64,000 nt of DNA from IMG/VR virus record IMGVR_UViG_3300013121_000025, positions 89,653 through 153,652 of that record; one strand, given 5' to 3'. A program made the position numbers and the translations under genes. The notes under the pieces are model-generated. The model was not told the DNA's origin and searched no databases. It worked only from the letters and a program-made list of their open reading frames with translations. Below are positions 59,356 through 62,684 of the stretch, piece by piece. Positions within the stretch are counted from its first letter, which is position 1, and the number at the start of each line of letters is the position of its first letter. This DNA comes from a virus. Its lineage: Duplodnaviria > Caudoviricetes.

Positions 59356-60137
59356 AATTAAATGAAATTGCTCCTCCTTTTATTGAACGAGTGCCTACCT
59401 TTCCTTATTGGAAAGATGTATTAAATTCTGATGGTAATTTTATATATTCTGAACTGTATTCTATATTAGAAACACTTAAACAAGAGGAAGGTACGAGAAG
59501 AAGACGTTTTACAGATTTGGAAGATCGTCTATTAGAAGAAGATACTTTTCCATATATGTTACTTAAATATGCATTATATCTTGACACGAGATGGATAGAA
59601 GCGGAATCAAGAATCGCGTTAGATGCTAGTGTTGCTTTAGAATATGCTTATTATGTGATTAAAGGGAGATTTAAAATTGCCGAAAAGACAATTTTAAGAA
59701 GTAGTTCATGGAAAGAATACATATTGCAGATTATCTTCGATAAGCAAATTGAAGCACCAGAAATTGAACAGTTTCTCGCTAAAAAAGACGTTTCAATGTT
59801 AGTACAATATTGTCTTAAAATTAAGAAAAGATTACCACAATATGAAGATATAATTGTAAAAACTAAATTACATACTGCATATTCATATTGTATCAATTTA
59901 ATTAAAGAACCGTGGCCAGAACTTGAGGAACGTATATTATCAGAACCAATTCCATCTGTTCCTTCACAAGCTTACGATTGGTTCGAGGTAGTCGGTCTTT
60001 ACAATTATATGGTTAAAAAAGAATATTGGCCAGAAGTGATTGAGAAAGTCGAGAGCCACTATGGTCCAAATTCTGATAAACCGTATGCCGTTTCAGGTCA
60101 TTTTAGTAGAATGCAATCGTTGAAATACAAAAATTAA
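59352..60137 (+). CDS. Helical-repeat hypothetical protein, paralogue 2
   Basis: Repeats RWIEAESRI, GRFKIAEKTI, PWPELEERI, YWPEV. Confidence 0.65.
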   Translation: MKLNEIAPPFIERVPTFPYWKDVLNSDGNFIYSELYSILETLKQEEGTRRRRFTDLEDRLLEEDTFPYMLLKYALYLDTRWIEAESRIALDASVALEYAYYVIKGRFKIAEKTILRSSSWKEYILQIIFDKQIEAPEIEQFLAKKDVSMLVQYCLKIKKRLPQYEDIIVKTKLHTAYSYCINLIKEPWPELEERILSEPIPSVPSQAYDWFEVVGLYNYMVKKEYWPEVIEKVESHYGPNSDKPYAVSGHFSRMQSLKYKN

Positions 60138-60148
60138 TATGATATAAT
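60120..60148 (+). promoter_or_regulatory. Sigma70-type promoter for the Thg1-like gene
   Basis: (G)TTGAAA-17nt-TATAAT. Confidence 0.8.
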
Positions 60149-60172
60149 TACTCTTTAATAGGAGTAATTTTT

Positions 60173-60934
60173 ATGTCTAATGATTCATTGGGCGATCGCA
60201 TGAAGAGGTATGAAAAGGTTTCTGAAAACTATCTTATCCGTCGCACCCCTGTTGTAATAAGAATTGATGGTAAAGCATTTCACACATTAACTGCATCTTT
60301 GCCAGAAAAATTTGATAATAGATTGCATTACTGTATGGTTCAAACTATGCGGAAAACGTGTGAGAAAATGCAAGGTGCTGTTCTTGGTTATACGCAATCA
60401 GATGAGATTTCTATTATCTTACGTGATTGGGATACTATTAGAACTGAGGCGTGGTTTGATTATCGTCAAAACAAAATGGAATCTGTTGCTGCGAGTATGG
60501 CTACAGCGTTCTTTAATGATATTGCAAAAAGCATACCTGAATTTAAATTAAACATGGCATTTTTTGATGCCCGTGCTTTTAATCTTCCTAAAGAGGAAGT
60601 AACAAACTATTTGAGATGGCGTCAACAAGATGCTGAACGAAATAGTGTTCAAACATATGCTCGTGAATTTTTTAGTAATAAAGAATTACATGGTAAATCA
60701 AATAGAGAAGCCATAACTATGTTAGATAATATTGGTAACTCGTGGCAACAACTAGACACATGGAAGAAACGTGGAACGTGTTGGATAGGAACAGATATTA
60801 GAAAAGGAACAATAGACAATGGTCGATTTAGTTCCGTTGATTTAATTTCTGGATTAGATGAAAATATCCCTGTCTTTACACAAGATCGTGAATATACTGA
60901 AACAGCGTTAATGTATATTAAAGAAGATAAATAA
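60173..60934 (+). CDS. tRNA(His) guanylyltransferase Thg1-like protein
   Basis: RMKRYE, IRIDGKAFHT, YTQSDEIS, FDAR, WRQQDAERNS. Confidence 0.93.
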   Translation: MSNDSLGDRMKRYEKVSENYLIRRTPVVIRIDGKAFHTLTASLPEKFDNRLHYCMVQTMRKTCEKMQGAVLGYTQSDEISIILRDWDTIRTEAWFDYRQNKMESVAASMATAFFNDIAKSIPEFKLNMAFFDARAFNLPKEEVTNYLRWRQQDAERNSVQTYAREFFSNKELHGKSNREAITMLDNIGNSWQQLDTWKKRGTCWIGTDIRKGTIDNGRFSSVDLISGLDENIPVFTQDREYTETALMYIKEDK

Positions 60935-60939
60935 TGGAT

Positions 60940-61023
60940 GGTTTACTGGAGCTATTCCAGCCAAGGCCGTCGGTCCTTGCCTCCTTCCACCGACAACGAC
61001 ATAATAACATGAAGGAGAAATAC
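60940..61023 (+). promoter_or_regulatory. Candidate cis-regulatory RNA (pseudoknot with SD) in folE2 leader
   Basis: Stem GTCGGT/ACCGAC with CTCCTTC in the loop, complementary to SD GAAGGAG at 61011-61017; ATAAATA at 60927-60933. Confidence 0.55.
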
Positions 61024-61950
61024 ATGTCAATACAACATCAAAAAACAGAGTTAAAACCATTTGATTGGGATTTAAAAATTACAAAAGATGATATTCCTGA
61101 TCCTCAAAATCTTCATTTCAATGAACACGCAAAAATAACTTTACCAAAAGTTGGGATCACAAAGTTAAGTTTACCAATTAATATCAAGCGTAGATCAGGA
61201 GACGTAATTACTGTTAAAGGAACTATGAGTGCATATGTATCTTTAGATAGTACGGAATCTCGAGGCATTAATATGTCTAGATTAGCAAGATGTTTTTATG
61301 AACATGTTGATGGTAAAGGTTCTGTTGAACTTTTAGAACTAATAAAAGTAGTGGATGATTATCGTAATAAATTACCTGCGAAAGATGGTTATTTAAAAGT
61401 AAGATTTGATTATCCATATAAACAAAAACATTGGCGTGAACCACATCAAGGATGGATGTATTATCCTGTGGAGTTTGAAATCGAAAATAGAAACGGTAAT
61501 TTAAAAACATTTTTAACTATAAAATATACATATAACAGTGCATGTCCGTGTAGTTTAGAGCTTGGGCAATTTTCACGTAATGAGTTAGATACTATTGCAG
61601 TATCACATTCTCAACGCAGTGAAGCCACTATAAAGGTTCAATTTAATCCTTATAGTGATGATTTACTTTGGATTGAAGATATTGTTGACTTGTGTCGAAA
61701 GATACAACCGTCAGAAGTGTTATCTGGAATTGTAACACGAGTCGGAGAATTTAGCATGGCTCAGATGATGGGATCGACAGATGCTGTAGGATTTATCGAA
61801 GATTTGTTACGTAAATTTTGGGCAGGATTTAATAACGAACCGAGAGTATTGGATTTTAGTATTGGATTGGTTCATTTTGAAGCATTAAATGATAATTACG
61901 CTGCAGGATTTATTAATAAATCTAATAATTATGGTGAAGGATTGTCTTGA
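61024..61950 (+). CDS. folE2: GTP cyclohydrolase I, FolE2 (type IB) family
   Basis: PDPQ, KVGI, RGINMSRL, SACPCS, HSQRS; ATG 61024 has a GAAGGAG RBS (the ORF track's 60934 start reads through the leader). Confidence 0.88.
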   Translation: MSIQHQKTELKPFDWDLKITKDDIPDPQNLHFNEHAKITLPKVGITKLSLPINIKRRSGDVITVKGTMSAYVSLDSTESRGINMSRLARCFYEHVDGKGSVELLELIKVVDDYRNKLPAKDGYLKVRFDYPYKQKHWREPHQGWMYYPVEFEIENRNGNLKTFLTIKYTYNSACPCSLELGQFSRNELDTIAVSHSQRSEATIKVQFNPYSDDLLWIEDIVDLCRKIQPSEVLSGIVTRVGEFSMAQMMGSTDAVGFIEDLLRKFWAGFNNEPRVLDFSIGLVHFEALNDNYAAGFINKSNNYGEGLS

Positions 61951-62684
61951 TCTTTAAATTTAAAAATATATCCTTTGTGGGACTTGTATGGTGCAGAGAC
62001 TCCTGTAGGAGTCTCTGAGAACCAATCTCCTCTGCAAATTTTCCATATAGCACTATGATCACATTTTAATTCCTTAGCACAAATGCTAATCGATTCCCAT
62101 TCACCTACGAATTCCATTGTTTCTTTTAAATAAACTAATATTTTTCTTGCGGTAGGTTTACGACGTTTTGCTTGTCGTGCAGCAGTAGACCATTGTTTTC
62201 CTTTTCTTGATTTACTCATATTTTCTGACGTTTCAGGACTACATCCTTTGCCATATAATTGTTTATTTTTTTCTTTAATTTTTAATTGCGCTTCTCTCAT
62301 ATTTAATTTAGCTTGTTCACTACGTTTCATCCCTCTATGTTTTTCGGCTCTTTGTTGTATTGATAGCGGAGTAAATCTTGCTCCTTCGCCTCCTTCAGTT
62401 AAATTACATAGTATTCCTGTATTAATGTCCTTGCGTCCATACAATGTTATAAGTTGTTTTTCACGCTCAAATGCTTCATGTTCAGTATCAAAAAATTCTT
62501 GTTCATATATAATAGTTCCGCCTTTGTTTATTATACTTACAATTTTTCGATGAACAGATCTTTTATACTTGTAAGAGTCTCTTAATGCTTCTGAAGCATG
62601 AGCATACATTCTGGATCCTTTTCCTTTTCCGACATAAAACGGTTGATCATCTAATGAATTTTTTAAAATATAAGTATAAAACAC
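61929..62684 (-). mobile_element. Free-standing GIY-YIG homing endonuclease with NUMOD3/NUMOD1-like DNA-binding tail
   Basis: FYTYIL...FYVGKG...R...H, E..LI..YGR, LCNLTEGGEG, EWESISICAKEL...IWKICRG, HKGYIFKF; CTAAATA at 62714-62720. Confidence 0.85.

Follow-up and report, generated by a model that had tools for sequence, protein, structure and literature searches.

A conserved pseudoknot containing the folE2 Shine-Dalgarno sequence in uncultured T4-like phages: a candidate phage riboswitch

We describe an RNA element in the 78-base leader that lies directly ahead of folE2, the gene for GTP cyclohydrolase I type 2, in a 64,000-nucleotide stretch of phage DNA (the window). The window is the 3' part of the 153.6-kb IMG/VR virus record IMGVR_UViG_3300013121_000025, for which CheckV estimates a completeness of 44%. 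Comparison of the leader with those of related phages indicates that it is a selected pseudoknot containing the folE2 Shine-Dalgarno (SD) sequence, and besides the window four more distinct metagenomic phage sequences have the same element immediately 5' of folE2 (L025, L026, L099 and the L014 lineage, which comprises L014, L103, L105 and L106). On the sequence evidence the leader is a credible phage riboswitch candidate. Tentatively, and with slightly less than even confidence, we read it as a putative effector-responsive, cis-acting translational switch that works through an SD-sequestering pseudoknot.

The phages that carry the element are uncultured T4-like phages from sludge and sediment metagenomes; the window genome encodes a T4-type gp23, and the window sequence was seen again in activated-sludge, sludge and sediment runs. 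About 24 folE2 loci of this clade, drawn from IMG/VR, JGI, ENA and Logan, were compared, 12 exact-protein look-ups and a metagenome scan having supplied about 20 further loci, most of them without the element.

Anatomy of the folE2 leader

The first-pass annotation of the window had proposed an H-type pseudoknot here and had remarked that the leader is GC-rich. Re-reading positions 60600-61300, we found all of its leader coordinates (P1, P2, anti-SD, linker, SD, CAAGG/CCTTG and ATG) to be correct. The pseudoknot is also upheld, as a conserved non-coding leader whose hairpin loop is paired, across an A-rich linker, with the SD of folE2, and positions 60940-60999 are indeed 58% GC, against 34% for the known 153 kb of the genome. 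The features, with lengths in nucleotides (nt), base pairs (bp) or amino acids (aa), are as follows.

60173-60934, + strand: thg1, tRNA-His guanylyltransferase family (Pfam PF04446, E 7e-28)
60932-60934, + strand: TAA stop codon of thg1, 11 nt ahead of P1
60946-60950 / 60956-60960, + strand: P1 hairpin CTGGA/TCCAG, 5 bp, loop GCUAU, read from the sequence
60961-60966, + strand: CCAAGG, able to pair with loop CCUUG at 60975-60979 (helix Palt)
60962-60966 / 60975-60979, + strand: the alternative pairing CAAGG/CCTTG, coordinates confirmed
60969-60974 / 60989-60994, + strand: P2 stem GTCGGT/ACCGAC, 6 bp, strands covary
60975-60988, + strand: P2 loop, 14 nt, made up of C-CUUGC, the anti-SD and a closing C; 11 of 14 positions invariant in all lineages
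60981-60987, + strand: anti-SD CTCCTTC (CUCCUUC), exact complement of GAAGGAG at 61011-61017
60995-61010, + strand: A-rich linker, 16 nt, poorly conserved, with no P4-like hairpin
61011-61017, + strand: SD sequence GAAGGAG, the 3' strand of P3, a 7-bp complement of 60981-60987; G61011-A-A invariant in all lineages
61024-61950, + strand: folE2, GTP cyclohydrolase I type 2, 308 aa (Pfam PF02649, E 4e-45)

The loop segment C-CUUGC is a candidate for two roles, as a major-groove strand and as the 3' strand of Palt. GAAGGAG and its complement occur 13 times in the window where about three copies are expected, and GAAGGAG is therefore the favoured SD sequence of this phage.

Covariation and invariant nucleotides

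Five distinct leader sequences were available for comparison, and the FolE2 proteins that follow them are 93% (L025), 87% (L026), 85% (L099) and 78% (L014, L103, L105 and L106) identical to that of the window. Covariation was counted on a model-guided alignment (A5); the linker was compared in alignments A3 and A5. The first-pass annotation had named covariation in homologous leaders as a check on the pseudoknot, and such covariation is present. Five of the six P2 pairs have changed on both sides (G-C/A-U, U-A/C-G, C-G/U-A, G-C/A-U and U-A/A-U/C-G), and P2 is without a broken pair in the four thg1-linked leaders. P1 keeps its position in each of the five leaders, with differing sequences of 3-7 bp and a C-G/U-A exchange at its second pair. 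P3 is kept throughout, with three invariant pairs and one double change, a C-G to U-A exchange in L014, whose lineage also has two changes of C-G or U-A to U.G and one A.A mismatch. The CAAGG/CCUUG helix is invariant bar a single G to A change in the L014 lineage (CCAAGA). Standard pairs fill 95% of the helix pair cells, compared with 30-50% in controls with slid partners, and none of 500 column shuffles reached the observed covariation. The U.G pairs in P3 identify the + strand as the functional one.

These leaders come from sequences that have diverged a long way, since the element-bearing sequences agree at only 25-48% of the fourfold-type third positions in folE2, and neutral sites are thus near saturation. 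At this divergence 32 leader columns are invariant, including CCAAG (A5 columns 18-22), CCUUGC in the loop, a single U, UUCC, and UGAA where the SD begins. Divergence has been free in P1, P2 and the linker, and the linker varies in length from 16 nt in the window to 18-19 nt in L025, L026 and L099 and 8 nt in L014. In L014 the nine nucleotides of the triplex proposed below and CCAAG/CCUUG are intact while the rest of P3 has changed. Judged from these alignments, the invariant CCAAG, CCUUGC, UUCC and UGAA exceed the needs of simple SD occlusion. A conserved structured leader that combines covarying stems with invariant unpaired nucleotides is what is expected of riboswitches in general.

One Logan contig of the L014 lineage (L104:737-810) has a one-base deletion in the U-run of the loop, with UUAUUCC in place of UUAUUUCC. 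Either the assembly is in error here or the variant is natural, and in the latter case the deletion would shorten the proposed triplex.

The leader is not translated

The frame from 60934 to 61950 is open in the window, and as an alternative the stretch would encode an N-terminal extension of FolE2 from the ATG at 60934, or else the pairings would have arisen by chance. The first-pass annotation had placed the start at the ATG at 61024 and had named a start at 60934 with 30 conserved codons as the finding that would speak against it. No such codons are kept by homologues: the longer frame is open in the window alone among the leaders, and the upstream frame meets an in-frame stop after four codons in L026 and L014, after 10 codons in L025 and after 23 codons in L099. 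The distance from CCAAG to the ATG is 63, 67, 64, 66 and 52 nt across the five leaders, differences that are not multiples of three. The start at 61024 is borne out by the proteins themselves, since about 64 FolE2 homologues are mostly 308-313 aa long with N-termini that match the residues encoded from 61024, and the gene call in the record itself is of 308 aa. In L004, a relative with 77% identity from which the element is absent, almost the same SD, the spacer and ATG-TCA are all kept. With helix covariation speaking against chance as well, we give this alternative a negligible probability. A frameshift or read-through of thg1 into folE2 was also considered and was rejected, the open frame having been found in the window only.

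Two further observations concern the reading frames on either side of the start. In L025 the thg1 frame runs on through P1 and CCAAGG and ends at a TAG within the 5' strand of P2 (L025:1440-1450), so that ribosomes completing thg1 would melt P1, the CCAAGG helix and P2, and would leave the SD helix alone. Separately, a subset of FolE2 homologues carries a Cys-rich N-terminal extension of 15-25 residues (of the type MSC..C..C.C) that the window FolE2 does not have; the carriers are P0025, P0027, P0028, P0031, P0035, P0039, P0040, P0044 and P0048 in alignment A1, and L004:2930-3000. The composition of this extension suggests an added metal-binding module.

Recurrence and gene neighbourhood

The five distinct element-bearing sequences among the roughly 24 folE2 loci fall into two gene contexts. 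In the window, L025 and L026 thg1 lies upstream of the leader; the L099 contig begins 20 nt ahead of P1, so that its upstream gene lies beyond the contig, and we group it with the thg1-context leaders. The L014 lineage has the gene order queD, HAD_PNKP, leader, folE2, phrog_19058, queC, glutamine amidotransferase. At the other folE2 loci, most of which follow an AAA_28 gene, a gap of 14-35 nt with a plain SD precedes folE2 (for P0049, a 14-nt gap judged from the gene layout alone). Because the element occurs in two contexts, and because most related folE2 loci are without it, we consider it to be tied to folE2 rather than to the upstream gene, and to be optional.

Within the known 153 kb of the genome there is a single copy, and no second copy was found there or in three related IMG/VR records using a regular expression and a covariance model. 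Pattern scans of IMG/VR for the core of the element returned chance matches only, none with a complementary P2 or SD; a pattern scan of bacterial and archaeal genomes gave at least 120 matches, all of them chance among the matches listed; and blastn of the leader against GenBank phages gave short, insignificant matches only. Contigs from four runs showed no differences inside the leader, so population variants added no covariation.

The gene contexts bear on whether the leader is an operator for an RNA-binding protein, in which case a phage or host translational repressor or activator would read the invariant single-stranded motifs on a P1/P2 scaffold. Invariant unpaired motifs on covarying stems suit a protein site as well as they suit an aptamer, and T4-type phages do use translational operators, among them the gene 32 leader pseudoknot, the RegA sites and the gp43 operator. 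However, no partner gene accompanies the element: the contexts share folE2 only, with thg1 or HAD_PNKP upstream and GIY-YIG, DUF7487 or phrog_19058 downstream, and we know of no RNA-binding activity of FolE2. We therefore regard a protein operator as improbable.

Downstream in the window, an open reading frame (ORF) for a GIY-YIG (LEM-3-like) endonuclease at 61929-62684 on the - strand runs towards folE2 and overlaps the final 22 nt of that gene. The slot 3' of folE2 holds, in relatives, either another GIY-YIG gene or DUF7487 proteins with matches to TnsA-like or REase-like endonucleases and to helix-turn-helix domains; we had considered these DUF7487 genes as pathway genes and dropped them as such, since they are endonuclease-like instead. 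The surroundings of folE2 have the look of a homing-endonuclease hot spot, and this may be why the leader is present so patchily. L100 has a tRNA gene (68 bits) close to folE2 (L100:373-444), and a tRNA-Sec-like match of 44.6 bits, below the cut-off of 47, lies near folE2 on the - strand of L004 (L004:4559-4647).

Stability of the helices and competing folds

Energies were calculated for nested folds and for duplexes; crossing helices and base triples lie outside the models that the tools use, and RNAalifold draws no crossing helices. The P2 hairpin is worth -7.2 kcal/mol, P3 as a long-range helix -8.1 kcal/mol and the CCAAGG/CCUUG duplex (Palt) -5.0 kcal/mol. Both the RNAalifold consensus and the minimum free energy folds of single sequences favour CAAGG/CCUUG together with P3. 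P2, P3 and CAAGG/CCUUG are thus each supported, by different kinds of evidence, and P2 crosses the other two. Single sequences fold with unremarkable z-scores (-0.3 to -1.4; L014, +0.7), which is to be expected when the key helices cross.

The lineages differ in the strength of P3. In the window the duplex of anti-SD and SD reaches -9.1 kcal/mol, compared with -7.6 kcal/mol for the 3' end of 16S rRNA on the same SD; the value is -7.5 kcal/mol in L025 and -0.4 kcal/mol in L014, where the Watson-Crick part has decayed. In 21 genuine preQ1-II RNAs it is -4.1 to -5.3 kcal/mol, which makes the window P3 about twice as stable. The window lineage looks closed by default, while closing in the L014 lineage would take tertiary or ligand support.

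The main rival to a switch is a constitutive attenuator without an effector, which would hide the SD at all times and fix FolE2 translation at a low level, or would shield GGAG and the mRNA from nucleases. G61011 would then fill in cis the layer that preQ1 takes in class II riboswitches. The advantage of anti-SD over 16S rRNA, the 99% pairing of the SD and the excess stability of P3 over genuine preQ1-II RNAs all favour attenuation, as do the C60987-G61011 pair, which makes P3 7 bp long and carries it up to P2, and the dispensability of the element at most related folE2 loci. Yet occlusion needs the anti-SD alone, and CCAAGG, CCUUGC and the two loop-flanking cytosines are invariant at near-saturated divergence; the anti-SD pairing is nearly gone in L014 while the remainder is kept; and Palt does not vary at all, in contrast to the freely covarying P1 and P2. 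We consider constitutive attenuation possible but rather unlikely.

Relation to the class II preQ1 riboswitch

A search of 4227 Rfam models with cmscan returned one match on the element, preQ1-II (RF01054), at 25.1 bits (E 0.22) against a gathering cut-off of 47. L026 scored 22.1 bits, and L025, L099 and L014 were unreported at E up to 10. Genuine preQ1-II members score 73-101 bits, and chance hits of 21-22 bits occur in one 2.2-Mb Lactobacillus genome. The first-pass annotation had recognised no preQ1, THF or ZTP consensus; this holds for THF, ZTP, preQ1-I and preQ1-III and fails for preQ1-II, the top match, albeit far below threshold. Neither positions 60000-62000 nor the other four leaders matched the Rfam models of preQ1-I, preQ1-III, THF-I/II, ZTP or SAM-II/V at E up to 10, and an Rfam search of the relatives' loci found no known preQ1 or THF riboswitch. 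By these searches the element is outside all catalogued RNA families.

The pocket of preQ1-II is formed by C30, U31, U32, U39, U40, U41, A70, A71 and A72 (PMC11625349). The element keeps seven of these nine mappable positions (C30-U31-U32, U39-U40 and A71-A72) with the same 6-nt spacing. The two others are changed in all five leaders, U41 to C and A70 to G, whereas 21 Lactobacillales examples of preQ1-II all have U and A there. The two changes are complementary, so that a C60987-G61011 pair is possible.

It is conceivable from this resemblance that the leader is a true preQ1-II member binding preQ1 in the known way. The Rfam scores of the window and L026 point in that direction, a covariance model built from the phage leaders picks out genuine preQ1-II RNAs where they truly lie and in the correct register, though weakly (17, 14.6 and 12.9 bits), and the pathway fits. 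Against this, the scores are far under the cut-off and little above chance hits, three of the leaders went unreported, and the window score depends on a GGU/ACC identity that arose by chance in P2, a stem that covaries freely. The element has no P4, although class II loses little preQ1 binding when P4 is deleted (PMC11625349). The change A70G, here in all five leaders alongside U41C, cuts the preQ1 affinity of class II 195-fold (PMC11602147), and the family is restricted to queT (COG4708) leaders of Bacillota (PMC11625349). Membership is, in our view, highly improbable; the comparison indicates an element built like the class II/III preQ1 core that is not a member.

Pathway context and transcription

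In the window phage genome queD and a QueE-like radical-SAM gene stand side by side; queC and TGT/DpdA were not found in the sequenced part (44% complete). In L103, queD, folE2, queC and glutamine amidotransferase form one block. Such gene sets are those described for phage 7-deazaguanine DNA modification (PMC6884629). Given queD and queE in the genome and queC in relatives, we take folE2 to be the entry enzyme of a 7-deazaguanine (preQ0-type) pathway. A minus-strand block in L003 (G000:C1:14111-17533) holds genes for NUDIX, QueE-like radical SAM and QueD proteins, a 344-aa protein of unknown kind and an ORF with a phosphoribosyltransferase domain; queD there overlaps the upstream ORF by 20 nt and so has no leader of its own. 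RNA-repair-type genes adjoin the 7-deazaguanine genes in both lineages, thg1 in one and a PNKP-type HAD phosphatase in the other.

The ATAAATA at 60927-60933, which had been taken for a late promoter, is present, but a promoter role is unsupported: the motif is common, with 11 copies on one strand of the window and 8 on the other, and the T4 late-promoter consensus TATAAATA is under-represented, about 14 copies being expected in the window and two present, each on the minus strand. Just ahead of thg1, at 60120-60148, is a near-consensus promoter of the sigma70 type (TTGAAA-17-TATAAT with a TG extension). One fragment from a sludge metatranscriptome library spans 60882-61018 without differences, in keeping with read-through from thg1, though a single fragment could also stem from contaminating DNA. 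The window leader probably lies within a thg1-folE2 transcript. Putative promoters are seen elsewhere, as a perfect TATAAATA 12 nt ahead of P1 in L099 and as a TG-extended TATAAT upstream in L014.

Proposed mechanism and significance

If the leader is a switch, the pseudoknot would lower the access of the 30S subunit to the folE2 SD. The 5' C-U-U of the loop would occupy the P3 major groove, above the invariant G-A-A / U-U-C, forming C.G-C, U.A-U and U.A-U layers, as in the class II/III preQ1 core; C60987-G61011 would extend P3 up to P2, with C60976 then placed on G61011 as C.G-C above two U.A-U layers. CCUUG could serve either as the Watson-Crick partner of CCAAGG or in its groove-binding, SD-proximal role, giving two competing folds, and an effector would set the balance between them and thereby the access of 30S to the SD. 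This effector would most plausibly be a small molecule of the 7-deazaguanine/GTP-pterin pathway, and the invariant loop-flanking cytosines 60975 and 60988 are candidate recognition bases. Taken further, the element may represent a phage-specific, uncatalogued riboswitch class that senses a 7-deazaguanine intermediate (preQ0, CDG or another base), with a class II/III-like triple-helical core, a remodelled pocket (C/G at U41/A70 and the two invariant loop-flanking cytosines) and a competitor helix, CCAAGG/CCUUG, throttling GTP cyclohydrolase at the entry to DNA modification. We regard this more specific proposal as possible, though on balance doubtful.

In favour of a switch we count the recurrence of the element in two gene contexts, the covariation of P2 and P3, the invariant columns beyond those that occlusion requires, the intact triplex nucleotides of L014, the 7-deazaguanine genes, and the resemblance to preQ1-II, which is weak but falls in one register in whichever direction the search is run; the tolerance of class II to deletion of P4 (PMC11625349) points the same way. 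Several of our results weigh against a switch. The pairing of CCAAGG with CCUUG is without covariation. In the nested ensemble the SD is 99% paired and the window P3 is strong by itself at -9.1 kcal/mol; as P3 is compatible with both alternative folds, the window lineage has no clear 'on' state. Pairing of C60987 with G61011 would shut the site where class II riboswitches hold preQ1, and to this is added the loss of affinity caused there by A70G. Lastly, the element is known from five distinct sequences only, all before one gene, and most related phages are without it.

Phages are reported to carry riboswitches very rarely: the finds of McCown et al. (2017) were limited to c-di-GMP-I in prophages of C. 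difficile and to cyanophage glutamine aptamers (PMC5473149). RNA-level control is not mentioned in the literature we searched on phage 7-deazaguanine DNA modification, including PMC6884629. The five leaders amount to a natural mutant series, in which P2 is fully exchanged between leaders and P3 ranges from strong in one lineage to nearly lost in another. The series would make testable whether phages meter entry into DNA hypermodification by sensing a metabolite of the pathway, and how a class II/III preQ1 pocket can be rebuilt or closed. Were the element to prove ligand-independent, it would still be a clean example of a triplex-type pseudoknot acting as a translational attenuator in a T4-like phage.

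Comparison with known systems

The nearest known system is preQ1-II (L. rhamnosus 4JF2 and S. pneumoniae). Both RNAs have a P1 hairpin that looks dispensable, a P2 loop laid out as CUU-N6-UU with U-U paired to A-A of the SD, and the entire SD within P3, so that the pairing of the 3' half of the P2 loop with the SD, by which membership is recognised, is found in the element too; control of a 7-deazaguanine-related gene at translation, as in preQ1-II, is predicted for it. They differ in that preQ1-II has a P4 hairpin between P2 and P3 where the element has a stemless linker of 8-19 nt, in the C.C 'ceiling' that the element has in place of a G-C or G.A pair, and in the extra invariant CCAAGG between P1 and P2. 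The element also stands ahead of folE2 in sludge phage, and preQ1-II ahead of queT in Bacillota.

PreQ1-III (RF02680) shares the ten-nucleotide pocket logic of class II, with C-U-U, U-U-U and A-A-A layers and U.A-U triples (PMC11625349), and seven of the nine mappable nucleotides of its pocket are kept in the phage element. There the SD is remote from the pocket, whereas in the phage element it is the pocket-side strand.

With preQ1-I and with SAM-II/SAM-V the element has in common a hairpin, a helix from loop to 3' tail, an A-rich crossing strand and a buried SD. The invariant C just 5' of the 3' strand of its stem resembles the specificity cytosine of preQ1 class I, and the major-groove triplex that we propose recalls SAM-II. 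Its 7-bp loop-tail helix and 8-19 nt linker are both longer than those of class I, and, unlike in preQ1-I and SAM-II/SAM-V, the closing pair is not a conserved G-C.

Among T4-type phages the counterpart is the gene 32 leader pseudoknot, a protein-dependent translational operator that nucleates binding of the encoded single-stranded-DNA-binding protein and does so without SD pairing. In both cases an H-type pseudoknot is followed by an unstructured, A-rich stretch leading into the ribosome binding site; the folE2 element differs in holding the SD inside the pseudoknot, and in having a metabolic enzyme as its product.

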